Shown here in pieces: positions 3,871 through 52,931 of a stretch of 64,000 nucleotides of DNA. The stretch comes from Blasia pusilla. Its lineage: Eukaryota. Numbering within the stretch: position 1 is the first letter of the stretch; each line of letters starts with the position of its first letter. The notes below the pieces were generated by a model that ran no database searches, was not told where the DNA came from, and was given only the letters and a program-made list of their open reading frames with translations. Position numbers and translations under genes: made by a program. Location of the stretch: assembly GCA_050084515.1 (NCBI GenBank), contig CM114271.1:29140001-29204000 (forward strand). Direction: 5' to 3'.

Positions 3871-4607
3871 GCATTAGGAGAGGATTCAATCTCAAGAATT
3901 CAAATGGTTGATGTATCCATGGAAGAAGTTTGGATATTTTTCATTTTTCCAATTAAAAACTTCTTAGAGGATACATAATGCTTAGAGGGATAATTTTTTC
4001 ACTTCTAAGGATGAGGGAACTCAAAATTTTACCTTCAAGGTGAAATTTTGAGCAGAAAAGTCATAATCTAGTTTGTGTAGAACCACATGATAATGGTTAT
4101 ATATCCTCACGCCTTAGTGGGGAGGAGTTGCCTCATCTTGGACGTTGAAAGGAGTGGCTAGGATGGTGTATAGGGTTACATTTAGGGTACCTTTTTGAAT
4201 GTCTCTAATGAGACAATCCTCTAGATCTTGGAAGATCCAACTGTCTATGTTTTTAGATGGATGGGGAGGGGATGGTTGCATAGGGAAGGGGTAGTGTGGG
4301 AGCCCTGAATGGGAGCTTCATTAATTACTAGTTTTGCTACAGAGTCAATTGGAAGGCCCAAATTGTAACCTCAAAGGCCATAAAGATATTGCATGCAGTT
4401 CAAAATTGGAGAGCTTCAAATTGGATCCTAGGTGAGTTAACATGCACATGACGAGCTATTTTTGTATCTACTCATAACGTTTTCATTTCTTCTCTATGTT
4501 GTTTTTGGTTTCGGAAATCTGACATTACGATGTTTGTAAGTGGGATATTATCAATCATCACTAGGTAAAGATGCGTTGGAAAAAATCTACACTATTGAAT
4601 CCAGGTT

Positions 4608-5267
4608 TGGACTCTCCATCGAGTTGTTGTGCGCATACACATTGCTAGACAACATACATCGCTGTCACCAAACACACACACAAACACGCACAATCCCGTG
4701 CTAACTCATGGCATCCAAACAACAAGACAAGACGTACCAAAATATCTCCAATCAAAGTAAGATCCAATCTCTCTCTACACCATCTCACACCATAGCTCTC
4801 AAAGGTGTGCACTCTCTCTCTTGTCAAACCAAACCCACTCTCCTAATGAGAGGCTTGGATTACACTCACAAGGCAAGGGACCATAGCTCCGCCGCCTCAT
4901 GCCAAGAGGTTCAACAAAGAGAGAATGAGCTCTCAAGCTCTCTCTCATTGTGGTATACCCCTCCCCTCTCCCAAGCTCTCTCCATGGTAACCTATTCTTC
5001 CAAGTCACCTCCTTGGCTCCTGACCTGATGTAGGAGGTCAAGGTCCACTTACCACAAAATAGAAAGTCGATCATATACTCAAAATGATACTTACCTAAAA
5101 TAGTAAGTTCCTCAATATGGCTCCAAATGAGCCGAAACGAAGGGAAAACCTGCTCTCTGAGGTTTCTAGGAGCCTCAGCCGGTCATCCTCGACCTATTAA
5201 GCTTGTCCTCCACTACTCATAAAGGTGCTCTACTAGATCTCACCGATCTATCCTAAAAGACGTGACA
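4608..5267 (-). repeat. Putative 3' LTR of the Gypsy element (TGTCAC...GTCCA on the minus strand); may instead begin at 5395 after a G-run
   Basis: The reverse complement of 5267-4760 aligns by eye with 38787-39280 (e.g. tgtcacgtcttttaggatagatc vs tgttatgtcttttaggaaagatc; ccaagcctctcatt.ggagagtgg), which precedes gag in the second copy. TG...CA ends. An AGGGGGG tract at 5398-5404 (minus) resembles a polypurine tract. Confidence 0.6.
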
Positions 5268-5575
5268 ACTCTCATGCGCATGCACATCGATACACAACAT
5301 ACATCGTTGTCATCGAACACACACACAAACACGCACCATCCCATGCTAACTCATGGCATCCAAAAAACGAGACAAGAAGTACCAAAATATCTCCAATCCC
5401 CCCTAGCTAGTGGTTAGGTCCCTCTAACTCCAGATAGCCATCTATCCCTACCTACCATGACATACATCTCTTGGTCGCTAAGAGCTAGAAGGCCGGGTGC
5501 TCATGTGGCCCCATCGTTAGTCGTCTTCTTGTCATCCATGTCACACATACCAATCGGAATGTAGAACTACCTACT

Positions 5576-5722
5576 CTATGTGCATTTGGGACACATCCAT
5601 CGTCCTTGAGGAACCCTAGTGAGAGGTGGCGTCAAACATGCCATATGCCATCCTCTCGAACACCCATCACAGACTAGCATTGTGGCCGCACCACGGGCAT
5701 AACCACACAATATACAACGCAA
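5576..5722 (-). other. PHD finger at the polyprotein C-terminus
   Basis: CILC...MLVCDGCSRGWHMACLTPPLTRVPQGRWMCPKC matches the canonical C4HC3 PHD spacing, with the conserved W before the last CxxC. Confidence 0.95.
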
Positions 5723-6960
5723 GCCCGAAGGAACTACTGCTAAGCTTAGATCTATTGTACCATCAATGTTAGGAAGGTGACATGGCGCACAATTACGCAC
5801 ATGGTCCTTCCATACCATACCATCACGTCCCTCCAGCAAGAGAACACCGGATGACAAAACTTCACGCACTCTCACGATAGTGCGCCCTGCAGTCACATCC
5901 AACGTCGTCGGTGCCGTCTGCTGCAAGAAGACATAATCTCCCTGATGAAACCTCCCGATAGTTGGTCGATAACCACCATCCCAAATAGTCGCATACCTCA
6001 ACGTATCCCGATGTTGCGCAATCGCCAAGTTCTTGAACGCCATGGGCATCACTCTACATAACAACTCAGCCCTCTGAGAACATGCTCACATCCATACATC
6101 TGGGTCATCAAGGTCCAGCACCTCACCAGCCTCTCGACGAATGGCCGCTCGTAAATCTGGCTCTCGGCCATAAAGTAGCAAGTACGGTGAAAAAGACGCT
6201 AAGGATGCCTGCCTAGTGAATATGTATCCCATCGCCAACCACGTCAACTGGAGGTTCCAATCTCCTAGGTTACCTCTATGCAAGCCATACTTGCGTAAAC
6301 CCCTCTTCACCGTCTGCACAACTCTCTCCGCTAATCCATCCGCCTCAAGATGATCTCGCGAGGCCGTGCGGTGGTCGATCAACGCCTGATCACACAAGGC
6401 CTGGAACTCACCGCAAAACTTGGTACACTTGTCTGTCAACACCTCAACCGGTACGCCATAATGACTCAACACTCTGTCAAGGAAGGCATAAGCTACTCCC
6501 TCACTCGCTTTGTCAAGCAATTCAACCAACTCGATCCACTTCGAGAAGTGCTCGACCATCACCAACACATAACGACTGTGACGCTTTTTCAAAGGCAAAG
6601 GTCCTGCAAAATCCAAACTCCATCTATACCCTAAGCCCATGATCGGTAATGGATGCAATTGTGGAGTTGGAGCATTGAACGATGCTCAGACCCGATCACA
6701 CACCATACACTTGGCAACAAAGTGATGAACGTCAGTCTCCATGCCTCGCCAGCAATACTGAATCAGGAGCAAGTTGTACGTCGGCTTCACCCCAAAGTGA
6801 CCCAACTCCTCGTGGGCATGCTGCACTAGTCGTACTCTCTGTAAAGGATGTGGCACTACGTGTACTCTATCATCCTTCCAAACCATCAAAACATGTGTCC
6901 CCTCCCAACGAAACCGTCTAGCCCGCTGTAGGATCCGATCCCGCTCTCTAGCACCCACGA
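5723..6960 (-). pseudogene. Retrotransposon integrase (HHCC zinc-binding, DDE core, C-terminal FHQGDYV segment)
   Basis: AHEELGHFG...CMVC; WSLDFAG, VLTD, DGLAERVVQTVK; SPYLLLYGREP in ORFs 6686-6958, 6086-6658 and 5576-6064. Confidence 0.95.
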
Positions 6961-7199
6961 TGCTCGCAACGCTACGAGTACTCCAAGACTACTCCATCAT
7001 CATGAATATCTCGGCCACCTGTGGTCTCCTCACTGGCCTTGGGATCCAAGGACTCTCCACTAGACCTCGCCATCGAAGTCTCCACACTTTGGCTCTCCAT
7101 AGCCAACATGCCTAAATAGGCTGACGCGTGCCATCCTGGCACTGACTCCTCATCACTCTCTCCATGCCATCGAGCTCTAGTCGCATCTCGATGACTCAG

Positions 7200-7600
7200 G
7201 CATGGGTTACGACTCAACCCATCTGCATCCTAGTGGACCGTCCCAGGTCTATGTACCACCTGAAAATCATACTCCTGCAACAACAGAGCCCATCTGGCAA
7301 GCTTCCCTGTAAGCTTGTCGGACTCCATCAACCACTTTAGTGGTTGATGATCAGTGATGATGGTAAAGGGGTTGCCAAATAAGTAACACCTGAAATACGC
7401 GATAGCCCACACTGCAGCCAAGCACTCACCCTCATACGAGCTGTACTTTGCCTCTACAACATTGTTCAAGCGGCTAGCGTAAGCCACCACGAACTCTCTA
7501 CCCTCATCATTATGCTGGGTGAGCACCGCTCCAAGCCCCAACATACTCCAATCTGTGTGTAGTTGGAAAGGACGCCCCTTGATCGAACTCCTCAAGATGG
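7200..7600 (-). pseudogene. Retrotransposon RNase H
   Basis: FQLHTDWSMLGLGAVL, YSSYEGECLAAVWAI, ITDHQPLKWL, RWALLLQEYDF, HRPG..DADGLSR. Confidence 0.95.
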
Positions 7601-8645
7601 ACGTAGACATCAACCTGTCCTTAAGCAATTGAAATGCTTGCTCTTGCTCATCCCCCTTGTACCACTCGTGATCCACCTTGGTTAGCAAGGTCAGCGGCTT
7701 TGCAATCAAACTGAATCCCTTGACGTACCGCCGATAGAAGTTCGCCAATCCCATGAATGCACGAACACGGCTCACATCTGTAGGGCATGGAATACGTGAG
7801 ATAGCCTCTACCTTCGTTTGCTGAATACCAAGGCCCCTTGGGTATATCGTATGACCCAAGTACTCAATATGTTTGTAGAAGAACTTGCACTTGCCTGGAT
7901 GTAGCTTTAGCCCATGTAATTGCAATCATCAAAATACCTCCTCTAGATGTCGCTCATGCTCCTCAACCGTGGCGCTAAAGACTACAATGTCATCAATATA
8001 ACATCTAGAAAAATCCAGACCAGCCAAGATCTTATTCATGACCTTCTGAAACTCAGCCACGGCATTCTTTAACCCAAATGGTAAGAACCGCCACTAATAC
8101 AAACAATCCTTCCCGTGAGGATCGATGCCCCAAAATGCCATCTTTTGCCTGTCCTTCAATCTGATAGGCAATTGATGATATCCGACTCACAAATCCAATG
8201 AACTGAAGACCTTTGCGTGACCAATCGCATCAAAGATCTCCTCAGGGGTGGGCATGGCATACCTATCGGACTTCATCTGCCGATTGATAGGTCGGTAATC
8301 CCCACACATCCACCTATCCGTCCAGTTGCCATGCACATCCTTCTTGGCGGGCATGACAGTGGTAGATGCATACTCCCCATGCGACATCTCCACTAGTCTT
8401 GCTCCAACCAAGTCCTGGCTCCTACTGTGAATCAGATCCCTCTCCATATCACTGTACCTCTAGGGTCGTCGGAAGATCGGCGTATTACTCGAGAACTCAA
8501 TGCACATCCCTAGTCCCTTCAGCTTAATCAAATCCTCCATGCTAAACGCAAAGCAGCTCCTATAACTCCTGAGGAACTGATGTATTCGGCGCCGCTCTCC
8601 TCTTGTCAACTTAGGGCCCATATTTGGCTCCCAAGTCTCCATCAT
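7601..8645 (-). pseudogene. Retrotransposon reverse transcriptase
   Basis: MCGDYRPINR, VFSSLDL*VGYHQL, LPFGLKNA, CYIDDIVVFS (YIDD at ~7989-8000), KCKFF..IEYLGH; several premature stops. Confidence 0.95.
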
Positions 8646-8984
8646 GACTTCGGTAGGACTCTCCGGCGTGGGTATTGGTGGTTGCTATGGTGCAACCCTG
8701 TCTCAAACACCAACACTCCACCGCTCTTCTGCAACCAGCTACAAACTCTGATCTCCTCCACATGCAGTGCCCGGAATCACTCTCGATGTTGTGGCTATCA
8801 TCTCCTGGCGTACCTGCAAAACATCCCAAGAAGTCCAAGGGTGTCTTTCATGATCTCCCCTGGTGTGTCGACCTCCTCGAGTCTCGCCCCAACCACTGCC
8901 TCCACCGTCTCGGTAGGTATAGGGCTCACCAACGCAACCGCTGTGATCTGTCGTGATCTCATCCGATGCTGCTCAGCCACTCCC

Positions 8985-9929
8985 AAGTTGAAGATCCATG
9001 TCAAGCAGTTCAGGTCCATCGCTTGACCCAAGACATGGCGTCGTGATGCCTCTGACACTGACGGTACTGTTGTCACTCCTGTTGGAAATCCCATCGCTCG
9101 CTCTCTCTCGTGGGCGTTGGGCTCCACCAACCGCTGAACCTGGTCATCCCAAACCAAGGCAAGATCGGCCTCCTTGTATGGATAGGAAGCGGGAAAACTC
9201 ACGAAGGTGGGAAAGGCTGCCCGCGGCCTGCCTACCTTGTTGACCACAGTCAACGGTGGTCGATCATCGTGCCCCATTGCGTATGATCGACGACCTGGAT
9301 CCAGAATGGAATCCACTAACAAATGGGAGTGGCGCTCCACTCTCACATACGCCCTTCGTAACACCGCATGGGGCACCAAGTTGGTCCACCATAGAGGCGG
9401 GCGATGGGCTCTAGAACCTACACTCGCGGTATCCAAGAACATTGTTGGGCCGATCCATGCACGCACGTGATGAGCACTCGTCACCAACCGTGACCTGGAG
9501 TCTCCTAAGATCGGCACATTCTCCAGAATGTAGGCTGGACAACGAGACTGGTGCTTCTGCAACTGACATAAGACCCTCAACATCTCCCAAGAAAACCTAG
9601 ACCGAGTGTCAGCCAACCCCTTGCCTCGTCCTGCACTGGATTGGCCCTGACATGGCTAACCGGCAATGACCAAATCAATGGTCCCTACTCGCTATAAGTC
9701 CTGCGCCCCCAACAACAAAATATTCCTCGGTAGGGAACTCTGGTAACCCCTCTACCGTGGACATAGATAATAAGTCGGGAAAACGTTGGCGTAATTGGGC
9801 CACATATCATAGTGAGACGCGCCTCGCAACATCATCACTCTCCACATACAGGTACTGTTGTACTCGCACTTCTGCCTGTAAAATAGCAGCTAACCCGGTG
9901 CTAATCCCTCCAAAGAGATCTAACACTCA
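8985..9929 (-). pseudogene. C5 DNA cytosine methyltransferase catalytic domain (DNMT3-like) inside the Gypsy polyprotein
   Basis: Hand translation: motif I *VLDLFGGISTGL (from 9926); II YLYVESD; IV IDLVIAG*PCQG (PC at 9655-9650); V GLADTRS; VI YILENV (E at 9523); VIII SRAHRPPLWWTN (~9380-9415); IX EPNAHERERAMGFPTGVT (~9071-9125); X RRHVLGQAMDL (~9010-9045). Four stops and one frameshift (~9748). Confidence 0.92.
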
Positions 9930-10361
9930 AAAATCCTCCTCCGGGGTACACCACACAATGGGTGTGGTATCCAAGGGTGTCATCGTAGCACTCCCTGCTA
10001 CTTCGGGTTCCTCAGACCCGTCATGCTCTGGTGTAAATGCCTCGCTCCACGCGGTCTGCACGTGCTCATCTGCCAATCGTCGAAGCTCCCCAGTCAAGCC
10101 CCACAGCGGCACCTCTCCTTCACGGAATAATGCGGCTACCATAACACTCCTCTCCATAGAAATTTCAGGAACAGGAGTATCCCTTGCATAGACATGTCCC
10201 TCAATCAAATCACTAGGCCAAGTGATGGCACCGCTAAATGTTGCTAAGGTCGCCATCTCTCCTGGCCGTTGCTCAATCATTGCACTTGTGAATCAAACGA
10301 GTAATGAGCTAAGGCGCCCATCACCTGACTACCATCTTGGTGTGTAGGACGTTGACTCCTC

Positions 10362-10784
10362 CTAGTAATCCAGGGCAAATCCCATCAAGTATAACACTGC
10401 TCCACCAACCAAGACGTCGTAGGACTCTACATCAATCACTATCGCCTTGGCTCGCACCACGGACTCATCTGTAGGATGTCCCGGGCGAATCCTCACCACG
10501 ACCTCTTGTCCGGTGAGATACTGTGTGGTACTCGCTCCACCCAAGGATGTCTGTATCCGGAATGGACAACGCTCCACATCGGCTCTCATAAAGCCCAATC
10601 CTTTGAATGACGCTTTCCCCAACATCAAGGGTTGCACTCTTGAATCCAACAAGACGCAATACGGACTAAAAGCTCTACCTCCGAGACTCACCAATTGGAA
10701 GACCTCTCCCCGGTTATCGAGCAACGCAACACCAGGAGAAGCCATGGCATGCTCTATCACGGGTTTAGCGGGCATCTCCGCCAT
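10362..10784 (-). pseudogene. Retropepsin-type aspartic protease
   Basis: VLLDSRVQPLM (degenerate D-S-G-A) and YDVLVGG (hydrophobic-hydrophobic-G motif), located between Gag and the MTase. Confidence 0.8.
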
Positions 10785-11489
10785 CCTAGCAGCCGCAGCC
10801 TGCTATGAATCTGACGTGGATGGCCCGAGCATCCGCTCCAAGGGCAGGTCCATCACCTCCTCTCCAATCACCTCTGAATGTGATGCAAGAACTCCAACTC
10901 CACGCTCATATAGCGTAGCGGCCAGCCAAAAAGCCTGGGCGGGCGTACCCCCCAACGTCATAACATCGGAAGCAGAAAATAAAGGAGCGCGGTACACAAT
11001 GGTGGCCGCCCCCAACAACGTGCTCGACACATGCCCCTCCTGAGCATCAACAATAGGAGTCGTCGCACTCGCTTCTCCCATCGCCCTCCATGCCTGCACA
11101 CCAACAACATCACCAACTCTCCAAGAAATTTGATCAGGACCCATCGATACGGTCTTTATCGCCTCGGACAACGTGAAGGACTGAGGAAGCCTAGTCTGTT
11201 TCCTGGCTTCCACTCGCTGTGGATCCAACTCTGCGGCTACTCCACGCGTCGCAACTGCGGGTGCCTCTATTTGGGCAACCCCGCACATCCAACCAGGATC
11301 CTCCATATCTCTGGCTGCTCCATATGATGTCGATGTCACGGATCCGACATCGGGTAATCTCAATGACATAGCGGCAATCTGGTCCAGTAGCTGATGTATC
11401 TGAGCAGCCATCCTAGCCTTACGCCCGGCATCTCCCTCGACGCGTCTAGGTTGCGGGACTCTACCTCCTCCACGGGCAGCTCCACCACC

Positions 11490-12691
11490 CTATCGGGCAA
11501 CTCCAGCTCCTCGTCCCCCAACAAGACCACCTGGTGCACGATCTCTAGGCCCACCCGGACCGGCTGCTCGCTCTGGTGCCCTCTTTGGCCCTTGGTCCGG
11601 ACGTAGCTCAGGATGTAAAATCAAACACCTAGCACGTGTATGACCATACCTCTGACAATAGTCATAGTGATAACCTACTGGTGCAGCACCATCTCCTCCT
11701 CCATGCTGAGCCACACGTCCATTACCTTGACGAATGCAATTGCGCTGATGATGGGCTCCACCATATGACCAACAAGTAATAGTAGGCGATTGCTGTTGAA
11801 CCGCATATGAAGGTGTAGGTCTCTGTGGCACAGCCTCTCGATATCCTCCTTGAGCTCGTGGGACCACAGTCGACCTATCTTGGAGTTCATGTTGCTGCAT
11901 AGGTACTGTAGGCAATCGTGAATGCTCTCGCCCAGAACCCATGGTGGCTACGCTCTCCTCCGCCATGTTGCGCTCAATGTTCTCTACAATCCTAAAAACA
12001 TCTCTCAACGTAAGGGAGGTATTCATAAGAAGCATCCCCTCCCGCACCGATGTCCCAAGGTCCGGTCCAGCATCGCGTACCATGACTGGATAGCCTGAGC
12101 CTCTGTCACCCCCTGAGTGACGTTGATCAATCGGCGCAAGCGAGTGTAAGCCTCACACAAACTATCACCCGGGCGCCTCTGGAAGTCGTGGATGCTCCGC
12201 AACTTCTCCGTTCGTACCCCCTAGTAGCTCGCCCTCAACTCAACCACGGGGTTGAACCTCAGACAAACCCGACTAGACGATGCAATTGCTCCAGTGCGAG
12301 TGACCCCTCCTAAAACATCACTAGTGGAAGAGGAAGAAGCCTCTCCAAACTCCTCCTCATCTGGGAATGGCTCGGTCCATGACACATAGTGTGGGTCATA
12401 GTAGAGCCTCCACGCCTCGATCTCACGTGCATATCTCTGAGAGAACTTATGGTAATCGTCCATGGGCGCCCCCTCTAAATGCTGGAACATACCGTTCCAT
12501 GCTGTAAACGGGTTGAACTCTCTAGAGTTCTTGGCCCGTTGGGAGTCGCACCACCTCCTAAACTCTACTATGAAATCGTGCAACTCAATCGTGCCTACTT
12601 CACTTGAAAACCTACACGGTCCTCTACCCCGGTCGTCCATCTTGTACGCCCAACTGGTAGGACCACTCATAATGTGTGGCGATGTGCTCAC
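11490..12691 (-). pseudogene. Gag (capsid and two degenerate CCHC zinc knuckles)
   Basis: FQRRPGDSLCEAYTRL (major-homology-like; ~12185-12138, stop-flanked frame); knuckles TCWSYGGAHHQRNC and YDYCQRYGHTRARC, each with one C>Y change. Confidence 0.85.
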
Positions 12692-13810
12692 AAACTCCTC
12701 TACATGCTCCCCCTCGTCTGAAGGAGATCGAGGTGGTCTCTCACGTGGAGACCCTCGAAACCTCGCACCACTCCGAGTAAACCCTCCAGAACTACTCTTA
12801 AGTCCACTACCTAACCTCTCAAAATCCTGAAAGGATGCCGTGATGGCCCTCGTGCCCTCTCACACGATCACTCTCAACCTTGTGAGTAATCCCTCAATCA
12901 CTCATCCCAAACATTCGGCACTCAATCTACACTCTCCCTCCCCGAGACGTGTAACATGCGGCAATAAGCGGCGTTGTGCGGCAAATCAACCAGACTATCA
13001 TCTCATCGACAACCTACCCTCAACTCCGGACATCCCACACAGGTCTATGTCCCCTAAACCACATACATAAATGATGCTCTCAGCATCCACACAACCCAAT
13101 ATCCCCAAATAAACTACCAAAATCCCAGAATCCCTCATACGTGCTGGATAAAGGACCAGAATGGGTAACCTGAACACATGTCGATCTCGCTCCCCAGCAA
13201 CTGCAAATCTCAACCCCAACTCGGTCGTGGAGACAACTCCTCCAATCAGCAAGTCATACTCCTCCCGTACTAACGCTGCTCAAAACTCCTCGATAGACAG
13301 TGCGGTTCCAACCAATCGGTGCGGCGTTGCAGGCGGCACGGAACGGCTACGAACGGCACAGCCCTCGATGGTGAAATGCGGCACTCGGCGGCATACCCTC
13401 CTCAATCAACAATAAACCCACACTCTGCTCCGCAATGACGGTGGGACTCCGCGATCGAGACGATGCGGTGCGGCCAAAATCGGCACGGCGCGGCAATCAA
13501 CGGCGCGTTGCGGCTACGGGCGTCACGGCACGGTACTCGATCGTCATCGAGCGGCTACCAATCACAACATAGCAATATGAAATCAAAACTCAAACACCAT
13601 AACCGGAGGTCATCTTCCATCATTGGTTGACAACGAAACTTCGATGACGGTGGCGGCCAAAACAAAGTAAGTGGTGGCGACGCAAATCAGAGAATCAACG
13701 AACGTCGTGGAAGACCCTACACTCCGTAATGGCGGCAATGGCAACCAAAGGGTGGACAATGGCCAAATGCGGCTCTAAGCAACAGCAACGGCCGACGATG
13801 GCCGGTGGCC

Positions 13811-13895
13811 GGTGGACCGTTGACGGTGATGGTTGACCGTTGATGGTGACGATGGACCGTTGATAGTGATGGTTGACCATTGACGGTGACGGTGA
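13811..13895. repeat. ~20-bp tandem repeat (GACCGTTGAYRGTGAYGRTK, ~4 copies) in the retrotransposon 5' leader
   Basis: ggaccgttgacggtgatggt / tgaccgttgatggtgacgat / ggaccgttgatagtgatggt / tgaccattgacggtgacggt read directly. Confidence 0.85.
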
Positions 13896-15810
13896 CTATG
13901 ACGGCGACGGCCGCCGCCGGCATGGCGGCTAGTTTAGGGTTTGAACAATTTAACCCTAAAAATTGCCTAGCAATGGAAATTTTTCAAGATTGACCATAAC
14001 TTCTTACTCGCAATCCAAATTGTGCATTGTTTAATGCACAACATGCACAACTTGATGATCTACGATGGCATCAAAAAATATTTGGAATTTAACATTCTAG
14101 TAAAAACTTATAGGGATTGTTGTAAAGCCCAATGTCTCTTTCTCCTACACAAAATTTGGCAACGCTTCCGCGCTGATTTCTCCCAACCAAAATGTAAAAC
14201 CTATAAAAATACAAATCAGCAAGCTATATGGTACTCCCGAGAGCACCAGCATGGGGAAACCCTCCCCCATAATCAATCCCTATCAGAAATTAGGCAGCGC
14301 TTCCGCGTGCCATTCTTCCACAAAAAAAATTGGCAAATGCAAAGAACAATCAAAGCAGCCCTTGCTCCGGTGAGCACTCCCATGAGCCGCTTGGACTCAT
14401 TCATCTCCTCCATTCTCCACTTGGACTCATCCCAGCGATCGAAACCAACGTAGCATAAAACTCATTGTGCAAAGCAAAGAGGGGAAAATTAACATTTCCT
14501 AGAGTTTAAAATATTTAATTACAGTGGTGAATTTATATTATTATTGGAATATATTATTGGAGAGTGTCTCATTTTGAGATCTTCTCCTTTTTTACTAGTG
14601 TCTTTTTTTTATCCGATAGTATTGTTCATTGTCTAAGCCGATGAGATGACTCGAATGGGAATTTAAAGTTATTAAAAAAAATGAATGGAAAGGAAGAAGT
14701 TATTTGTGGGATGGAAGATTTGTAAACAAAGAAGAAAAGAGGTTTTACTTATGAACTTCGCGGATATGCATGCTATACCAAATGTGCACACCCGCGCATA
14801 TTTGTCGATATTGATACACCTAAAAATCTATACTATAATGCGAGGAGGGGGGGGTTACCTCTTATGGTTTTTTTTTTTTCCCAAAGAAGTGAAGCCTTCC
14901 ATAAGCAATCATCTTGAAATGGCCGCTTTGAAGAAAAAGTTAAAACAAATAAAAAAAATCGAATCGATGGGAAAGTTTGGAGGGCTTCCATTTGAACGGC
15001 TTATATTTGAATGAGCCATGATTTTTTTTCTTTACTTGGGACACTTGTCAGTTCGGAAGTAAAAGAGGAAACTTTTTGATGTAACCAACCAAATTAAGAC
15101 ACCTATGAACTTCCTAGCTCTAGCTCATTGCACATAAATCATCCGCGTCTCTTAGTTGGAGTAGACTCAACGTAGGTGTCAAGGAACTGAAGAAGGAGCT
15201 GGCGAAGAAGGTGGCGGCAAAGTGGAGGCAGCATCAAGGTGTTATCAAAAATTTGGAGAAAGCTTATCGACCGAAGAGGGTAAATCTCTGTTTCCAAGTA
15301 GGAATTGGTTTGGATTGTTTTACTTCCGCGTGGGTTCCTCCATGTGAAAGAGGAGAAGCGCTCTCTCGCTCACAAAATCTTCGAACAAGCTGGCTGCAAC
15401 CAAATTCCAAGAATTCGTGACTTTTTAGTGTAGGAATTACATTGGTTCAGATCAGACTTCGTAAGTTTGCGATTTCCCATTCTGATTTGCTTCAGAGGAG
15501 TGAAGAACTAGCCGCACTACATCTTTGTGTCAACGAATCACAGGGCGTCCCTGATTCACTTTATTCGCGCTGGCGTATCACAATCACGGGGAGTCTATGA
15601 TCGACTTTGTGTAGGCAGGCCTCGATGTATATCACGTAACCTCGATTCCTTAAGTTCCACACGATGAGAAACTCATCATGTGGAACTAAAGGACTTGCTT
15701 CCTACTTCCGTCCTCTTACCGCTCAAAATTTTTTGAATACGGGACTGTTATCTGCAGAGGTGGGGAACCAGTTCGACCAAGAATTCTATGAAAAGTCTCG
15801 AAAGGCCAGT

Positions 15811-17485: not shown

Positions 17486-20240
17486 TTGAGCCTAACTTAT
17501 GCCATGTCAATTCTCTCATTGAGCTACAAGAGGCCGTTAATTGTGAAAGAAATTGTAATAATTACGAGTCCTGAATATGTGGTAGAGAGAGATGAGCATA
17601 GATTTTCATTATCTCACTCACAACAAAAACGAAATTTTTTTGATGTGGACTCTAAATTTTCTTCTGCTATTTCAAATGGTTTCAATGAGACTGAGGAGGT
17701 TAGAGAAGTCTCAATAGGCCAAGAAATTTTGATTACTCTCAATAGTAATAAGAGTTACTCTATAGATAGTTGCCCTCTTGAAGATCTTGACGATGGGGAA
17801 TATTCTTCTACTTCCCTCTATGATTCAGAGGGATGGTATGTTGGTGATGAGTTTGACCTGGAATATAGGCGTATGGATTATGCAGATTTAGACATTAGTG
17901 ATGATAGTCGAGATATTGGAGATAAGTAGCCAAAAGAGTACTATATATTGTTTATATTCAATTAATCATCAAAAAACCATCTTCGTTTTGTTTTCAGATA
18001 TGTCTGTTTGAGATTGTTGAGTTGAGCAAACGATCAAGTTTCATTTCTTTGGGAGTGGAGTGACTCAAAAAAGTAAGTCTTCTCTGCTTGTGTACTAATA
18101 TTCATTTGTGGAGATTTAGTATCCTTTTCTATTGAGTATTTATTTTATTATTTCAAAATATTTATTTTATTAAAATAATTGTATGGATAATGCAGGATAC
18201 TTTATAAATGAGTGTTGAAGATTTACGCTTTAGCGATGGTGAGTTCTACGTTCCTCTTGATGAACAAGAAAGGGATTATACACCTATAGATGTCGACATA
18301 GTAGAGGTAATACAAATATCAAGTCCGAAGTATGTTCCATCACCGATCATTGAAAATAGGAATAATGCTTCAAGTCCTGGCTATGTTCCATCGCCGATTT
18401 TTTAAAACAGGGATAAGGCTTCAAGTCCTAGCTATGTACCATTTCCGATTTTTGAAAATGGGATTAATGCTCCTAATGTTAGTATGAGCCCTTTGAGAAA
18501 TGATCAGAGTTGTAGTTATGATGAGAGTACATCTAGGATTTTAACCACGCTTGTGGTGAATCATCATTGTATTTCACAAGGAGTAGTTGGAGGTCAGGAG
18601 GGAGAAGAAGATATAAATTCCACACATGATTGCATCCCTTCCTCGGACCCTATAGCATCTAGCCATTCATTTGTGCGTGATTGTTGCGGGTCGGGGTCAT
18701 GGGAAATTAGTGATTGTCATACAATTTGCTCGGAGGACTCAAGTGAGACGAGTACGGCTGAGTCTCATTGCCCGTTAGAATGATTTTCCCATTTCAGATT
18801 TTTATAAAAACTTAAGTTATGTGTTGCTCTATTTTTTATATAGAATATAATATTCACGTACCAAGACTTGAGTTTAAGCTTTTTTGCAAATTTTTTTCTT
18901 TTTTTTCTAATATTTTTTGATATATTGTCAATACATATTTTTCTTGGATGGTTGATTTTGTCACAAGATGGATGAATCTCAAGAGGAACCATCGAGGCGG
19001 AATGAAAAAAGGCCATTCGCAGACATCACCAATGTAGTCTTTTTACCTAATGTGGAGCATGATCACCACATTTCATGTAGTCCACCATCTCCTATGCGGA
19101 TTTCGGAGGAAACAGAGAAGCTTGCATATAAAAAGGCTAGAAGGGTTGCATCTCAAAGAAACAGAAGGGCGCTTCAAGATATACGATTTGTAACTCATTC
19201 AACGACTTTGTCATCTCCACTGTAAGGATGCTTTGCATTATGATTATATAATGATATCGTAACCATATGTGCACACTCTAGATTTGTTGTGTGACTTTAA
19301 TATCTTTCATGTTTGTGCTATAGACTTCCAAATCCATCGAACCCGCAACGGTTACGTGATATACATCAAATTGTGAGAGCTCAAGGACAAAAGCAAAGAC
19401 ATGCCAAATTAGTTCAATTGAGATCTATTGAAGCTATTGTGAATGTTCCTTTGATGGAAGAATTACAACCACCCATTATCGATGACTCATCTGGCACAAA
19501 TAGTATAAGGTATTTATTTATGTATAACATTTCTACCTTTTCTTAAAAATATATTTAGAATTTTATTTCCTATTTTGACTTTTCTTATTCTTTGTCCAGG
19601 TTGGTAGCAACACCTACCAATGGCAATCTTCATGCTTCCATAGACACTACATCATCTCCCATGTATGTTTCTTCCACTTATTAATTTCTTATTTTTGATT
19701 GGTCTTTTTTGAAGTTGAATTTTTTAATAGAATTATTATGATTTGATTTTTATAAATATTTTTTTTCTCAGTCTTCCACTTCCGTCCAACCCTCGAGGAT
19801 TACATGCTATGCTTCAAGTTGCACGAGCACAAGGCCAGAGAAGGAGGAACAATCTTCTTCCTACAGAAGAAGTCGAGGCCATGACTACTAATGACTTTCA
19901 TGCTCAAGCTAATATGAGGTATGCTTAAATTTATAAGGTGGTCTTAAATTTTTATGAATGATTTCTAATAACAACATTTTTTGCAGGCCAATAATGGTAC
20001 ATCATGAAGTTGAAGCTATTCCAAACTCTAGGACTGTGGTCGTACCATCTCCAATGTATATTTCTAAATTGTATATTCAAATTATAATATAGATATGTTT
20101 GTATGTATATTTATTTTTATTATAATCATATGTATTAATTTCTTAACCTCTACTTGCAGTCTTCCAATTCCTACCAATCCTCTACGATTATGTCACATGC
20201 GTCAAGTAGCTTGAGCTGAGGGCCAAAGAAGAAGACGTGC
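17486..20240 (+). pseudogene. Probable upstream exons of the Helitron protein (acidic, SP-rich, repeat-built N-terminal extension)
   Basis: Same-strand coding-like blocks separated by AT-rich GT-AG introns; the last block runs straight into the RepHel frame at 20240. Contains stops. No known domain recognised. Confidence 0.55.
18320..18470 (+). repeat. 51-bp coding tandem repeat x3 (SSPxYVPSPIxENxxxA)
   Basis: caagtcc recurs at 18320, 18371 and 18422. Confidence 0.9.
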
Positions 20241-23200
20241 TCATTTAGATGAAGTACATGAGTTTACAAATGTTGGTGATCCGTTGATAAGGAGTGATGC
20301 CAATGGATCTAATCGTGAAGGCCACATGGAAGTGAATGAAGACAATGTATATGCCTCGATTCCAAATGTGGGATCTTTTTTGGATGAAATACATGAGATT
20401 GCACATGTTGGCGATCTGTTGATAAGGAGTGATGCCACTGGAGCCAATTGTGAAGGCCACCTGGAAGGAAATGAAGACAATGTACATGCCTCAATTCCAA
20501 ATGTGGGATCTAGAAGGGTTGTGAATTTGAAAAAGTTGCTTAATATTGCACGTATTCCTAACTTTGAAGAAAAGCACATTCGAATTCTTAGGTTGGGAGA
20601 TCATATTGATAGTATGACTGGCCGTTTTAGTGTTGGACTTATAAATGTTATTTGTCCGAGTTGCAATGCTCTACATTGGAAGTGTGAGAGAGTGAAGTAT
20701 ACTAGGTTTATAAGCTCGCCTTTTGGTATGTGTTGTGGGCATGGTAAGATTCAATTACCATATTTGACAGCTTCACCTTCTATACTAGCAAAATTACTTT
20801 CTGGTAGGAGTTCAAATAGTCTTCATTTTTTGCGCAATGCACGTGCCTATAATAGTGCTCTTCAATTGGCATCTATTGGGGCCCATGTGACAGAGCAACG
20901 AGGTGGTACAGGAAACTTCAGGATTCAAGGTGGTGTATATCATTCTATTGGACCTCTTCATGCTGAAAGTGGTGCTCCTCCACAATTGCGCAGATTTATG
21001 TTCATGATGATGAGCATCAGATGGAATATAGAAGAAGGATTATGAGTGGAGATTACCGGGATCAATTGAGGCTAGAGATCTTAAGGGGATTACAAGATAT
21101 GTTACATGCCCATAATCCATATGTGGCTCTATTTCGAAATGTGGCTATTGATCCATGTAATTATGACTTCCACATTGTTCTTAAGGGTAGTAAGCGAGGT
21201 CTCGATGCGAAACGATACACCTTGCCTGTTGCTTCAGAGATTGCAACTATCTTGCCGGGAGATGGGAGTGAGCCAGTAGAAGGACGTGATATTATTGTTC
21301 GCTTACATGGAGGAGGAATTTTTCGTCTATCACATCTGAATGAAGCCTATATCCCATTGCACTTTGTTTTGCCTTTTGTTTATGGTGAAGCAGGTTGGCA
21401 TCCAGGAATACCTTTGCAAGTGCAACATGATCATAGACATGATGCGCCGTTAAGAGGGGATGCTATCATGGAGGAGGATGAAGATGATATTGTACAAGGG
21501 GGAATACAAGGTGAAGTTACCACTCATGAGGCGAGTTCAAAGACCATTACAGCTTTACAATTTGCTTCATTTAGACTTCAAATACGAGCTAACGCTATGG
21601 ATAATAATCGGTTGTTGAGGTTTAGTTGTCTTACTCAAGAATATATGGTGGATATGTATGCGACTATTGAAATGCAGAGGCTAACTTGGATACGATTGCA
21701 TCAAAAAGAGTTGAGAGCTGATTTATACCAAGGTGTCAGAGATGCCATGACTCGGCATGATGTGAACGGTCAAGGCTTAGGGAGACGTATTATCTTACCT
21801 TCGTCTTTCATACGAGGACCCCGTCACATGCATCAATTGTACCATGATGCTATGACCATTGTGAGACATTTTGGGAAGCCTGACTACTTTTTGACTATGA
21901 CTTGCAACCCTAAATGGCCTAAGATTACTTCTGCTCTGCTTCATGGGCAATCAACGTGTGATCGTCGTGACCTGGTTGTACATGTTTTCCAACAAAAGAA
22001 GAAGGAGTTATTGAGACTTATATTGGATAAGCATATTTTGGGTCGAGTAGTAGGATGCATTCATGTAGTCGAGTTCCAAAAGAGAGGGCTACCACATGTG
22101 CATATCCTAATTATTCTTGCTTCTGAGGATAAGCCAAGGACAACCTCTAATTTTGACGATATTATATCTGCTGAGATCCCCAATCCTATCACTCATCCTA
22201 GGCTACATTCTATTGTAAGAAATTGTATGATTCATGGTTGGTGTGGAGTAATACATCCAACTGCACCTTGCAAGGATAAAACGACAAAAATATGTTCCAA
22301 AGGATACCCAATGCCCTTTGCATCAATGACAATGGAGAATGAGGATGGATATCCTATTTATAAGAGGTAATTCATTGCTTTTGTTGTTTATTTCATGATT
22401 TAATGCTCTTTTATTAGTGTGTTATGTATTTTCCTCAACTACTAACAAGCTCTATATGTGTTTATGCAGGCGTGATAATGGCAGATTGATTAATAAGTCA
22501 AATCATGACTTCGATAATCGTTGGGTGGTTCCATACAATCCAATGTTATGTACTTTATTTGATTGTCATATAAATTTGGAAATAACAAATAGCATCTTGG
22601 CTGTAAAGTACTTTTATAAGTATGTATACAAGGGATCTGATGCCATATCATATACCTTGGCAAATACTACATCATGCGAGGATACTATTGATGAGACATC
22701 ATTATATCTTGATGCAAGGTATTTCGATCCTTCTATCTTTCAAGATCTCCCTATTTTTTCTTATGATATTATGTGGGAGCCTAACAATATTTATATTGTG
22801 TGGTATGAAGGTATGTTTCTTCTTCAGAAGCATGTTGGCGAATCTTCAAGTTTAGTCTACATGTAGAGCAACCAAGTATTATGAGATTGATTGTTCATCT
22901 TCCAGACAGTCAAATGGTATATTTTCATGGGCAAGATTCATTGGGTAATATTCTGGAGCAAAGTAAGGAAACCACTCTCACTCAATGGTTTGCAACAAAT
23001 GTTTCTGATTCGATTGCGCGACAATATCTTTATTTGGAGTTCCCTTCTCATTACTCTTGGAATAAGAAGCAATTGCATCTACGTAAACGTGCAAGAAAAG
23101 GATGTGGACATCCTATTGGACGTTTGTATATGACAAACCCAAGTAAAATTTCTATTCTCTGTTAGAATACAATTATTAAGGCAAAAATTTATTTTAAGTT

Positions 23201-38786: not shown

Positions 38787-41700
38787 TGTTATGTCTTTTA
38801 GGAAAGATCATTGAGTTTTGGTAGAACCTCATGAGGTCGAGGATGACACATTGAGACCTTTGATAACATGAGAGAGTCAATTTCCCTTTCATTTTGGCTC
38901 ATTTGGAGTTATATAGAGAAACTTAATATCTCCACTAAGCAAATTTAACTTTCCATTTTGGGAAATGGCCTTTAATCCTCTAGAGCATCTCAAAAGTCAA
39001 AGAAATGACTACGAGCATAGATTACCATGGAGATAGGTTGGGATAGGGAAGGAAGTATACTTAAGGAGAGAGAGTTTTGGAGCTCATTCTTTTTTTGTTG
39101 AGCCTCTTAGCATGAGGCTTTAGACCAATGGTCTTTTTTGCCTTGTGAGTAACCCAAGCCTCTCATTCGGAGAGTGGTTTTGCTTAAACATATAAAAGAG
39201 ATGGTATTTGTGTATATATTGTGAGACATTTGAGTGCTAGTAATTTACAAAGAGAGAATAAGAGATTTAGAGCTCACAATACGGGAGATCGCTAATATCT
39301 TTCTATTTTTGCATGTTGAGGACTTCGTTCCCTATTCAGTGGCTCATAGGAGTGCTCACGGGAGCAAGAGGCGCTTTTTGTGTTTTTTATTGTGTGATTT
39401 TTTTTACGAGAAAGTGGTGCTTAGAAGCCCTGCCTAATTTTTAATAAAAATTGAGTATGGGATGGCATTCTCCATACTGGTGCTCTCAGGAGCACCCTTT
39501 AGCTTGCTGTATAGCAGTTGTTCAGGTTTGCAAATTTTCTGTATTAGTTGAGGTCACACGTTGCACGACCATCTCCGCCAATTCTAGATGCAAGGTCAGG
39601 TGAAGGAGTTGATTTGATGACATTGTAGATCAAGAAGTCATGCAGGTTGTCAAAGAAAGAGTGTGAAATTTTAATGTTGGAGCTCAAAGTTTTGGTCATT
39701 CTCATGGGACTGCCATAGCCAATGCAAGAAGGTAGAAATTTCAAAATCTTGTAACTCTCTTAATTTGGTCGGGTTAGAAAAGTAAAAATATTTTTATTAT
39801 AGTACATAAGACAAAGGAAAAAGTGATTTGAGGGTGAGAGTAAGTGAAAACTTTATTTAATGGATATTGACCCAAGATTTATGAGGCTCAGTGGAGTATT
39901 AGCCAAATTTGAGATAATCCTAGTGAGTTCACCATCTTTTAAGGGCTTAGTCGAGTGGAAAAAAAACAAAAGAAATAGACTTTTGAATAAGGTTAAAATA
40001 GAGCAACATTGATCTTAACCAACTATCTACCATTCAACCACTGTCATCTATTTGATCTCCGTCAACTATCGCTCGTCGCTACTCGACAATCGTCAATGAA
40101 TAGGGTCAAGTTTCGAGCGATGGTCTGCCATGCATAGTGATTGGTATCCGCTTGAAGTTTATCAAGTACTATGTTTTGACCCCCATAGTTATTATGCACT
40201 GCTGATGGCCATACTGTGTTGCTCATGGCAGCAACGCACCATCTTGATCGCACAACGACACTAACACTAAGGAACATGGCGTGTATTTCCGCTAGTGGAG
40301 GGGATACCATTGATTGTCGCATCTCGACATCACATGTCGAGCCATTTGTAGTCGTTGCACCGTACTATTGATATACACGCATCGCATATCGAGGAGGTTT
40401 GTGTACCTTCAACATCTAGGAAGTACGACTTGCTAACTAGAGGAGTTTGTCTTCTTGACCAAGTTGGGATTGAGGCTTGCTTTTTTTAGGAGCAACATCG
40501 ATATTATTTTTCAGATTATTTTTCTATTAGTCTCTACTCTTCACAAGTGAGGAATTCTGGATATTGGGGAAACTATTTGGGATATTTGGGTTTTTACGGA
40601 TATTGAGAGTATTCTGGATGTAGGAGGTTAGGGGACATGGACTTCTATAGGATGTCCAGAGTTGAGGGTATGGCATGCCGATGAGACCATAGACTAGTGC
40701 TGCTTTGTCACACCACGCCGTTTGTTGTCACATTACATATATCTCACGGGAAAGTGGTGGAGATTGAGTGCCGCATGTTTTTGTTCGGAGTGATTGAGGG
40801 ATTGCTCGCCAGATTGAGAGTGATCATGTGAGAGGACACGAGAGTCATGAGGGCCTCCTTTCAGGACTTTGAGAGGCGAGGTGGTGTACTTGAGAGTAGC
40901 TTTAGATATTTTATCCAAAGTGGCACAAGGTTTCGAGAATCTTCACGTGAGGGATTTTCTCAACCTCCACCTCCTTCTATGCCTTCTCCCTCTCAGACGA
41001 GGGAGAGGACGTAGAGGAGTTTGGAAGTGCATCATTGCACTTGTTGAGCTTTCCTATCGTTTGGGCGTACGAGATGGCGGGTTGTGGTAGAGGATAGCGC
41101 AGATTTTTGGGAGTTGTGGGTACTATAGAGTTGCACGACATCATCACGGAGTTTAGGAGTTGATCTGACTCATAGAGGGCCAAGAACTCTAGAGAGTTCA
41201 ACCCTTTCATAGCATGGAACGGGATGTTCCATCACCTATAGGTGCCCATGGACGATTACCATCAGTTTCCCCATGGATCTGCATCTGAGATTGAGGCCCG
41301 GAGACTCTACCATGGCCCATATTACGTGTTATGGATTGAGCCATTTCTAGATGTGAAGGAGGATCTAGGAAAGGCTACTTCTTCTACCATTAATGATAGT
41401 CATGGGAGATGGATTCAAAGTGGGGCAGTTACATCATCTAGTTGGATTTGACCTAGGTGGTCTAGTTCTTTGCGGAGTTGTGGAGGAACTACCAAGGGGT
41501 AAAAATTGAGAAGTTGCAGAGCATCCATGACTTCCATAGGCGCACATAGGAGAGTTTTTGGAAGGCATTAACTTGCCTCCTTCATTTGATTAGTGTCAAT
41601 GAGGGAGTGACAAATATCGAAGGTGTGCAGGCATGGTATGGAATACTGGAACGAGACCTGTGGAAATTGATGAGGGATGCAGTACTTCTAATGCGCCCCT

Positions 41701-42880
41701 CACCTATGTTGAGAGATGTCTTTGAGATAGTAAAGTACATTGAGCACAATATGGTCGAGGAGAATGTAGTAGCCATAAATTAGAGGCGAGAGCAACCACG
41801 ATTTCCTTCACCACCAATGTAGCAACGTGGATTTCGAGAGAGGAATGTGGCATCATGAGCTTAGGGAGGTTATCATGATTATGTGCCACAACGACCCATA
41901 CCATCATATGTGGGTCATATCAGGAGTTATAAGTTAGGCATACATACGGTGCTCCCCATTCCCACCAAGATTCCACCCGTCACATATTGGGTACGTGCCT
42001 GAACATGGAGGAGTAGATGGGCCACCAAGCATGTTCCAATGTGACCATTTTTAGCAGTATGGTCATATCCGCACTAGAATTTTTGGCCTACACCTTGAGC
42101 TACCATCCCATCACGGGCTAGAGAAGGCACCAGAGCTAGTTGGCGGTCCACGTGGACCGATAGCTTGTACGCCAAGTGGTCTCGTATGGTTTAGGATGAG
42201 GAGTTGGATTCACCCATGTAGGAGATAGGGATCTGCCATCTAGATACGCCGAGGAAGACACAAGGCATAAGGTTGGGATGCTACTCAGAAAGAGCAATTG
42301 CATATTGTTGTATGGCATTGAGGTTACATGATGTTGGATCAATGACATCCACCTTATATGAAACAGCCAAAGATATTGAGGATCTTGGATATGGAGGCAG
42401 CCATTGTTATTACTTGTGGATCAACCATTGAGTTGGATCCACTGAGAGGGAAATCCAAGGAAAATACCAAGCTTCCTTGGTCTCTTACTTTGTCCAAGGT
42501 GTTGAGGACCCCATTGATGGATCCTGATTAGAGTTCCCAGAGATGGATGTTGGTGGTATGCAGATATGATGGGCAATGGGAGAAGCGAGTGTGACGACTC
42601 CTATTGTTGATGCTTAGTTGGAGCCCGTGTCGAGTACGTTGTTGGGGGAGGTTACTATTATGCCCCGTGGTTTTCAGCTTCTAATGTTACGACATTGGGA
42701 GGAATGTCTGCTGAGATTTTCCAACTGGCCGCTACGCTATGTGAGCATGGAGATGGTGTAACTACCTTACGTCCAAAGGTGATTATGGAGAGGGTGGTGG
42801 ACTTGCCCTTGGATTGTACGCTCATGCCATCCACCTTAGATTCATAGTAGATTGCGACTGCAAAGATGGCAGAGATAGAG
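38787..42880 (+). mobile_element. Older, truncated copy of the same Gypsy family (5' LTR, leader, gag; ends just before the protease)
   Basis: Nucleotide similarity to the reverse complement of 5267-4760, 14390-14220 and 13300-10770, e.g. gccaagaactctagagagttcaaccc (41179) and gcgagtgYgacgactcctattgttgatgct (42586). No long ORFs remain. Confidence 0.9.
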
Positions 42881-52474: not shown

Positions 52475-52931
52475 CTACAGCAGAACACATTCAACCATTA
52501 AATCACAAAAAATGCTTTTGAATATTGGAATAACATCCTAGACTTGACTGGCAGTGGTTGGCAGCGACAGAGGACTTCCGTGAACTATCATCCTCTTTCC
52601 AACAGACCAATGATCAAGCGATTCTACAGGTGCAAGCCCGAGGTACTGCCCACCACAAGCTCAGATGACCCAATTTAGGCTGACATCCTCAAAAGAACGA
52701 CTCCCAGCAGACCCCAGGAAGGAGGGTACCACCACCAGAAAAGAAGCAACATGTTGCGATCTACTTCTCTTGCCCGAACAGGGTACCATAAGCAGGAACG
52801 AACTTCTAGAGTAATACCCCAGCGTACACCGCGAATTTGAGATTGACTTCAAAATGTAACTAACTCATACGACACCTGAGAATAGTTCAGCTGCATACAA
52901 AACTACGCGACAGGGACTCGGCCTTCATTAC

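Follow-up and report, generated by a model that had tools for sequence, protein, structure and literature searches.

Could one retrotransposon carry both a writer of DNA methylation and a reader of histone marks, and what could the two modules do for it? The question is raised by a stretch of 64,000 nucleotides from Blasia pusilla (contig CM114271.1, positions 29,140,001 to 29,204,000 of the forward strand; the window hereafter), in which a minus-strand element of Ty3/Gypsy type, e1, extends from about 14391 to 4630. It comprises gag, a protease-like region, a DNMT3-type C5-methyltransferase (MT), reverse transcriptase (RT), RNase H (RH), integrase (IN) and a PHD finger, in this order. According to the original prediction, made for positions 5576-9929, the same polyprotein carries the MT and an intact terminal PHD finger, a combination resembling the animal DNMT3 with its ADD domain. 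As discussed below, the copy in the window is dead; judged by sequence comparison, the MT and the PHD finger are not distributed independently of each other and are co-inherited across a large group of green-lineage Gypsy elements.

A dead Ty3/Gypsy copy and its two modules

Both predicted domains are present on the minus strand (Pfam matches are given in Table 1). The PHD finger is intact and fused to the end of the integrase, as had been claimed: 8 of its 8 zinc ligands are present, and it ends one residue ahead of the stop codon 5576-5578. The claim of one polyprotein fails for this copy. In tblastn alignments with intact relatives, the aligned parts of e1 contain 18 in-frame stops and at least four frame changes, the latter near 12060, 9750, 8886-8640 and 6975. 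Stops are found in the gag/protease-like part (11492, 10805, 10364, 10331, 10295), in the MT domain (9929, 9809, 9694, 9658, together with one frame change), in the RT-RH part (six) and in the integrase part (6688, 6088). The upper coordinate of the predicted region, 9929, is itself a stop codon just ahead of MT motif I.

The only open stretch is formed by the last 169 codons, which encode the integrase barrel and the PHD finger. By our own arithmetic, a stop-free run of this length has a chance of ~0.27 at about 18 stops per about 2350 codons; since it is expected about one time in four, the intact finger is no evidence of selection on e1. Programmed frameshifts at the frame changes near 6977 and 8886 were considered and rejected. 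RNA reads of relatives often differ in length at these sites by a number of bases that is not a multiple of three (roughly one third to four fifths of the reads, by run and site), and the shifts are therefore private lesions of e1. An uninterrupted C5-methyltransferase domain with its catalytic residues, as in an active enzyme, is found in relatives such as P0001-P0005 and is lacking in e1. The copy e1 encodes nothing functional. Its CpG observed/expected ratio (0.74 in the coding part vs 0.46-0.94 elsewhere in the window) says nothing about self-methylation.

The dead copy, truncated at its 5' end, is a Gypsy element by its proteins, not by its ends. RVT_1, RT_RNaseH, Integrase_H2C2 and rve follow one another in the pol order of Ty3/Gypsy, and the best PDB match of the relative P0122 is the Ty3 Gag-Pol (6.5e-77). 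The e1 stretch has 50-54% GC vs 35-40% in the flanks. Its gag and protease parts are recognisable through relatives only: no Pfam family was matched by the gag-like N-terminal region, and no Pfam match to a protease was obtained in the window copy itself. Residues 204-983 of the Marchantia protein P0003 align over 12062-9612, extending into the MT part, and Asp_protease_2 occupies the protease-like position in the relatives P0014 and P0020.

Distribution of the methyltransferase and the PHD finger in relatives

With the MT as query, 30 longer proteins were obtained, from Calypogeia fissa (63% identity), Marchantia polymorpha (many), Sphagnum, Closterium, Cymbomonas and metagenomes. The integrase-PHD query retrieved 266 proteins at E <= 1e-10, with PF00628 in 119 of the 120 listed; its named relatives are chlorophytes (Chlamydomonas reinhardtii, C. 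eustigma, Haematococcus, Volvox, Pleodorina, Tetrabaena). With the barrel-PHD tail as the only query, a set of 1.84 billion cluster representatives yielded 230 relatives at E <= 1e-30.

Domains were mapped in 241 collected proteins with probes from intact members. The order RT-RH-MT-IN-PHD is realized in 108 of them, MT-RT-RH-IN-PHD in 3 and RT-RH-IN-PHD in 34, most of the last group beginning too near the RT to reveal an upstream MT. Among the proteins with RT-RH-IN-PHD, 111 have the MT, 3 are without it, and 31 could not be judged. In turn, of 148 proteins in which the MT is accompanied by a complete integrase with at least 170 residues after it, 144 have the PHD finger. P0041, a single open protein, has the order MT-RT-RH-IN-PHD, and the same uninterrupted order is found in P0042.

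A scan of metagenome DNA with profile A3, which is free of the bias of open reading frame (ORF) calling, yielded 355 relatives, of which 80 loci were analysed; a scan with P0041 alone yielded no relative. The MT lies upstream of the RT in 48 of the 80 loci and also in L039, where the RT is deleted. Both domains could be judged in 41 loci: both are present in 33, the PHD finger only in 8 as scored, and the MT only in none. Inspection of the PHD-only loci revealed an MT in L039, a 5' truncation in L057, L060 and L066, and an incomplete locus in the case of L064. The MT is truly missing beside the PHD finger in L019, L022 and L023, which are only distantly related (39% identity). The survey of co-occurrence proposed in the original prediction was thus partly run, and its outcome (144 of 148 proteins, 33 of 41 loci) speaks for linked inheritance.

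A tree of RT-RH-IN (FastTree, 81 rows, built from proteins with near-complete RT and integrase) shows a division, with support 100, between two clades. The window copy is a member of clade A (31 rows), as are all four of the rows in which the MT lies upstream of the RT; these are scattered within the clade. In clade B (50 rows), the sister clade hereafter, the MT lies between RNase H and integrase in 45 rows, and a nested group of four rows is without MT, three of them having long N-termini. Because this nested group and L019, L022 and L023 keep the PHD finger, the finger can persist without the MT. A tree of the MT (168 rows) is congruent with the split of the RT tree: the upstream-type MTs form one side (25 rows), apart from those of P0239 and P0240, which are placed off that side and have the two longest branches. 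The named members of clade A are all streptophytes (Marchantia, Calypogeia, Sphagnum, Closterium) and those of clade B all chlorophytes. This division of hosts is provisional, since most tree rows are unnamed.

From the window alone, where the copy is split into many frames, a mosaic could be suspected, with the MT or the PHD finger stemming from a piece of a host gene or from another element nested in this one, and paired by accident. Nested insertion, chimera and chance juxtaposition were rejected: the order recurs in the uninterrupted proteins P0041 and P0042 and in 33 metagenome loci, and the MT and RT-IN trees are congruent. An artefact of this kind is refuted, and the probability left to it is negligible. 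That both modules belong to one retroelement consequently stands for the family, the copy first described being dead.

One polyprotein of this eukaryotic family, P0209, is source-labelled as a Minisyncoccia bacterium metagenome-assembled genome; the bacterial label is probably a binning or contamination error.

Nature of the modules and their possible roles

The MT of e1 is 59% identical to that of Marchantia P0003 and, compared with it, retains motifs I (FGG), IV (PCQ), VI (ENV) and X (GQAMD) and an RxP remnant of motif VIII. The motif order I, IV, VI, VIII, X is the non-rearranged one of the Dnmt3 type. All 25 of the 25 PDB matches of P0003 are DNMT3A, 3B or 3C (best E 1.7e-8). An ESM Atlas search with the MT frame returned generic DNA methylase clusters only. 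Most MTs of the sister clade escape detection at the threshold of Pfam. Pfam left it below threshold or blank in four proteins, and a PDB search with the single sequence of Haematococcus P0122 gave no methyltransferase among the best 60 matches. Its identity was settled by a profile of 11 sister-clade MT-IN-PHD proteins, which matches DNMT3A (1.4e-13) and DNMT3B (2.5e-12), the only methyltransferases among its best 60 PDB matches. By motif order and nearest solved structures, the MT is of DNMT3 type.

A G-patch domain (PF01585) occurs in the sister-clade proteins P0113, P0069, P0090, P0155 and P0227; its placement, between MT and integrase, was mapped in P0113 alone.

Each zinc ligand of the PHD finger is conserved in 191-193 of 193 relatives. 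Its best PDB sequence match is CHD4 (E 5.3e-17), followed by PHF12, KAT6A/B, KDM5A/B, DPF3, PHF21A, ATXR5, AIRE, BAZ2A/B and UHRF1. Among the best 60 of 109 PDB matches, there is no finger of ING, BPTF or TAF3 type and no ADD, ATRX-type or DNMT3 match. In the AlphaFold2 model of the last 169 residues (mean pLDDT 85.3), a long helix is followed by a five-strand barrel and the PHD finger. The top Foldseek ranks of this model are proteins combining a barrel with a PHD finger, namely PHF1, UHRF1 TTD-PHD and MTF2. The modelled finger alone superposes at 0.5-1.3 A on those of DPF2, DPF3b, ATXR5, BAZ2A/B and BHC80, and several of the fold-match entries bear titles that refer to complexes with unmodified H3 tails. 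The matched PHD fingers prefer H3 without K4 methylation, as stated in part by the titles of the entries. The finger of this family therefore resembles readers of H3 unmethylated at K4 (H3K4me0), which may serve as a lead to its specificity; the resemblance rests on the matches to CHD4, KDM5A/B PHD1, BHC80, AIRE, BAZ2A/B, ATXR5 and UHRF1.

In some sister-clade elements, the PHD finger is followed by a second reader. Behind the finger of P0143 from Chlamydomonas eustigma lie another SH3 domain and a chromodomain that scores below threshold, and P0215 is listed with PF00385 along with PF00145 and PF00628.

The way in which live copies could express the two modules is indicated by the best-preserved relatives. 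A single open frame from MT through PHD is found in none of the 33 metagenome loci. In L001, L002 and L012, a single TAG is all that stands between ORF1 (gag-protease-MT) and ORF2 (RT-RH-IN-PHD), the two being in frame with each other. The context of this codon is CAR-YYA in L001 and L002, and G with a GC-rich hairpin in L012. In the window, TAG CAA CCA stands just ahead of the RT homology, the surrounding frames being decayed. CAR-YYA and hairpin contexts after UAG promote leaky read-through. The single UAG suggests stop-codon read-through as the putative expression strategy.

Transcription was followed in three raw-read RNA runs, with the same species label as the best-matching DNA, over 30 bins spanning 4500-14500. 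About 4600-4800 reads per run cover all 30 bins. A likeness of at least 99% to e1 is reached by no more than 4-9 reads per run, most of the others being 90-95% alike, so related copies are transcribed, not e1. First mates map to the plus strand at about 20:1, which means sense-strand RNA of the element if the library chemistry is the usual stranded one. In the DNA contigs of one run (X1), 269,724 pieces match, and the family is therefore highly repeated.

The reading considered moderately probable is that MT and PHD finger act at separate stages of one life cycle and do not form one allosteric unit. In live copies, ORF1 would be made in bulk, and ORF2 would result from occasional UAG read-through. 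Through its PHD finger, the integrase could anchor the integration complex on H3 tails that are unmethylated at K4, in analogy to the chromovirus chromodomain in the same position, and such tethering would steer insertion off active promoters. If packaged along with Gag and cDNA, the MT could methylate the new DNA of the element itself, as de Mendoza and co-workers have proposed for retroelements with a DNMT (PMC5890265). These steps of reading and writing are predicted from sequence and analogy.

Several observations weigh against this assignment of roles. The protein sets were gathered with integrase-PHD and MT queries, which favours finding both domains together. The strand of the RNA is called on the assumption of the usual chemistry. 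MT and RT share one open frame in P0010, P0041, P0042 and P0110, so the read-through plan is not universal. Other points concern the modules themselves. Motif IV is ECQ instead of PCQ in 62 of 142 sister-clade MTs, which is unusual for active C5 enzymes. In a few lineages, including Chlamydomonas reinhardtii P0107 (Cys and ENV gone), the catalytic residues are lost and the domain is kept. When the DNMT domain of a Klebsormidium Gypsy element was expressed in yeast, no detectable methylation was reported, a result called inconclusive by its authors (PMC5890265).

The last three points, together with a location in ORF1 beside Gag that would suit RNA binding, could also be explained if the MT is no DNA methylator and acts on RNA or as a binding or structural module, chromatin being targeted by the PHD finger alone. 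This alternative is considered unlikely. Motifs I, IV (Cys), VI (EN), VIII (RxR) and X are kept in more than 90% of the 142 sister-clade domains (Cys of motif IV in at least 131, EN of motif VI in 134, RxR in at least 133) and in nearly all clade-A domains, which exceeds the need of a binding role; moreover, the closest solved relatives are DNA enzymes.

The finger raises a similar doubt about the favoured assignment. The acidic patch before its central strand (family consensus P-D-D-E) is replaced in the subfamily of the window copy, and likeness to H3K4me0 readers does not fix the specificity of the predicted reader. PHD fingers have varied ligands, and with an acidic patch that varies between subfamilies, this one could be imagined to contact a host protein, a nuclear import factor or DNA, in a role unrelated to targeting. 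Such a role is very improbable: the finger lies behind the integrase barrel, where chromoviruses carry their chromodomain; its sequence and modelled fold are closest to fingers solved with H3 tails; and non-random insertion of a PHD-bearing Gypsy element has been reported (PMC9940879).

A closer coupling of the modules could also be proposed, namely an integrated reader-writer unit in which the PHD finger directs or licenses its own MT and the integration, the new copy or its neighbourhood being marked according to histone state. It would be in agreement with the co-inheritance of MT and PHD finger nearly throughout the lineage, with conserved key residues, and with the H3K4me0-type class of the finger. 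In the sister clade, the MT is directly upstream of integrase-PHD (108 proteins), and the modules could conceivably belong to one mature MT-IN-PHD protein in that clade. However, in the clade of the window, the MT and the PHD finger of the closest intact relatives are about 1100 residues apart and are encoded in different ORFs separated by UAG, with a protease in the polyprotein. The finger is also kept without the MT (the nested group of four rows; L019, L022, L023), and MT-only cases were not seen. Coupling of this kind appears to fit the sister clade better than the clade of the window and, on the whole, is given a low probability.

The likeness to animal DNMT3 stressed in the original prediction can be viewed in the same light. 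The ADD domain of animal DNMT3 reads H3 without K4 methylation. In both cases a DNMT3-type catalytic domain is apparently accompanied by a zinc-finger reader of H3K4me0 class, and the functional analogy is apt in that the finger is nearest to fingers for unmodified H3. The element differs in having a plain C4HC3 finger that is fused to the integrase, at a distance from the MT, and that belongs to the other ORF in its closest relatives; with no ADD match among the best 60, this finger is an analogue and not a relative. ADD-like regulation in cis between PHD finger and MT appears unlikely in the clade of the window because the two are about 1100 residues and a protease apart, in separate ORFs.

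A bolder variant, to which only a small chance of being correct is assigned, is that the DNMT3-type writer and the unmodified-H3K4-type PHD reader have been together since before the divergence of chlorophytes and streptophytes, as a mobile counterpart of ADD-DNMT3 setting its own state. Only the position of the writer in pol would have shifted. Integrase-PHD would place the copy in K4-unmethylated chromatin, and the Gag-linked MT (in the sister clade, a mature MT-integrase-PHD fusion) would deliver it already methylated. If this is true, the element chooses and sets its own epigenetic state and does not await the host.

Terminal repeats, other window content and related systems

The coordinates of the features are collected in Table 1.

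Table 1. Features of e1 and its related copy in the window, and TAG codons of metagenome relatives
Feature	Coordinates	Strand	Basis or remark
5' leader, internal region upstream of gag	12860..14391	-	resembles copy e2 at 39338-40891
gag-like N-terminal region	12026..12859	-	tblastn, Marchantia P0003 residues 9-215, 51% identity; stop at 12223
gag C-terminal part (Cys/His knuckle-like stretch), then protease-like region; decayed	10002..12062	-	P0003 alignment
DNMT3-type C5 cytosine methyltransferase, pseudogene	8831..10001	-	PF00145 E 2.1e-5; frame of match 8798-9655
TAG CAA CCA, stop in UAG-CAR-YYA context at boundary of MT part and RT part	8679..8687	-	read directly from sequence
Reverse transcriptase	7845..8306	-	RVT_1 E 6.2e-27; RT-RH 61.6% identical to P0031
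RNase H	7269..7652	-	RT_RNaseH E 6.4e-35
Integrase	6359..6841	-	Integrase_H2C2 PF17921 6686-6841 E 1.1e-13; rve (DDE core) PF00665 6359-6628 E 2.6e-10
Integrase C-terminal five-strand beta-barrel, SH3/Tudor-like	5783..5935	-	AlphaFold2 model, strands at residues 51-101
C-terminal PHD finger (C4HC3) and stop	5576..5716	-	PF00628 E 3.1e-10, PHD at 5582-5716
3' split direct repeats	4630..5398	-	B1 5275-5398, A2 4754-5274, B2 4630-4753
Second, 5'-only related copy e2: repeat A, leader, gag	38787..42876	+	blastn 72-77% identity to e1
In-frame TAG in metagenome loci	L001 5083-5085; L002 4661-4663; L012 848-850		

No pair of two identical long terminal repeats (LTRs) was found in e1. Its 3' end has the arrangement B1-A2-B2, without A1: B1 and B2 are 90% identical over 124 nt, and no copy of repeat A was found upstream of 14391. 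A2 matches a stretch upstream of the leader of e2, a copy about 73% identical to e1, which has gag pieces only by tblastn and is cut off before MT, RT, IN and PHD. Since RNA reads of relatives connect the end of repeat A (4754) directly to 14389, repeat A is a terminal repeat whose 5' copy was lost from e1. At 14390-14430 (minus strand), where the similarity to e2 and the joint of A to the leader begin, an 11-base word is repeated 30 bases apart. A joint of 5397 to 4754 might have pointed to additional tandem units, a reading that was rejected because the 90% likeness of B1 and B2 explains the joint. Among 12 relatives with sufficient flanking sequence, the full layout A1..B1-A2-B2 was found in L008, L052 and L063, an A pair in L026, a B pair in L014, L032 and L078, and no repeats in five.

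Other content of the window includes a Helitron-like element at 20215-25757 (plus strand), in which Helitron_like_N (E 3e-54) occupies 20967-22370 and part of a Pif1-type helicase 25266-25757; short tandem or direct repeats lie at 20244-20511. On the minus strand, an uninterrupted frame of 555 codons at 30409-32076 encodes Glyoxal_oxid_N (E 1e-99) together with a GO-like E-set domain and probably represents a glyoxal oxidase gene of the host, without introns. Frames at 51563-54098 (minus strand) with zf-MYND and an MSS51 C-terminal domain, in a GC-richer stretch, are likely exons of a host MYND/MSS51-type gene. The Helitron-like, glyoxal oxidase and MYND/MSS51 content fits a plant nuclear genome.

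Among the closest published systems is KnitGypsy-Dnmt3 of Klebsormidium nitens, a Gypsy element with Dnmt3 (de Mendoza et al. 2018, PMC5890265). As described there, it has in common with the window copy a Gypsy pol with a non-rearranged Dnmt3-type domain and a streptophyte host. Its DIRS-type split repeats (A-coding-B-A-B), combined with Gypsy domains, correspond to the full layout of L008, L052 and L063, and e1 has the B1-A2-B2 part of it. Its copies are reported as silent and methylated in Klebsormidium, and PHD is mentioned 0 times in the main text of that paper. No Klebsormidium-named protein is among the listed MT or integrase-PHD relatives.

PHD fingers of Gypsy elements are known from Chlamydomonas. 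REM1 (Perez-Alegre, 2005) is cited as a PHD-bearing Gypsy element of this alga. Gypsy-7a_cRei encodes a Gag-Pol with PHD and has a 2.6-fold excess of intergenic insertions, for which targeting is suspected; its family is active in laboratory strains, with 86 recent insertions counted (PMC9940879). Chlorophyte proteins, including P0107 of C. reinhardtii, fall in the sister clade described here. The domain list published for Gypsy-7a_cRei (PMC9940879) is without a methyltransferase, whereas the sister-clade proteins mostly have the DNMT3-like domain. PHD or chromodomain fusions to transposons in general have also been published (bioRxiv 10.1101/2021.11.30.470311). Taken singly, neither module is new to retroelements, PHD-Gypsy and DNMT3-Gypsy elements having already been described (PMC9940879, PMC5890265).

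Chromoviruses likewise have a histone reader behind the C-terminal barrel of the integrase, thought to tether integration (Gao et al. 2008, cited in PMC6673714, bioRxiv 10.1101/2021.11.30.470311). Their chromodomain binds H3K9me, whereas the present finger is of unmodified-H3K4 class, and the predicted target chromatin differs accordingly. EpiLTRs of Cymbomonas and Euglena are LTR elements with a chromodomain, DAM (N6-methyladenine, 6mA) and DNMT4-like domains (bioRxiv 10.64898/2026.05.21.726589, 2026). They resemble the present family in combining a chromatin reader with DNA methyltransferase domains in an LTR retrotransposon, a 'complex epigenetic toolkit' in the words of the authors, and differ from it in that here a PHD finger is combined with one DNMT3-type domain. 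In that preprint, the acquisition of DNMT3 by streptophyte Gypsy elements is treated as distinct. DNMT3s of algae and protists are reported to be without companion domains (PMC12344493).

The pairing of PHD and DNMT3 in Gypsy elements was not found in a search of full-text literature, the figures and supplements of the 2018 paper being outside its scope, and no mention of the Marchantia gene identifiers of three relatives was found in full-text literature. The lineage-wide pairing, the two positions of the MT and the UAG junction are modest additions to what is known.

The window copy itself is ordinary genome debris. The distribution of its relatives suggests that DNMT3-bearing Gypsy elements are no oddity of Klebsormidium and occur in liverworts, mosses, the zygnematophyte Closterium and many chlorophytes, nearly always with a PHD finger of the unmethylated-H3K4-reader class. 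The UAG between gag-protease-MT and RT-RH-IN-PHD bears on the relative amounts in which the modules are made. As naturally intact, transcribed copies exist, the family is a testable system for a reader and a writer within the life cycle of one retroelement.

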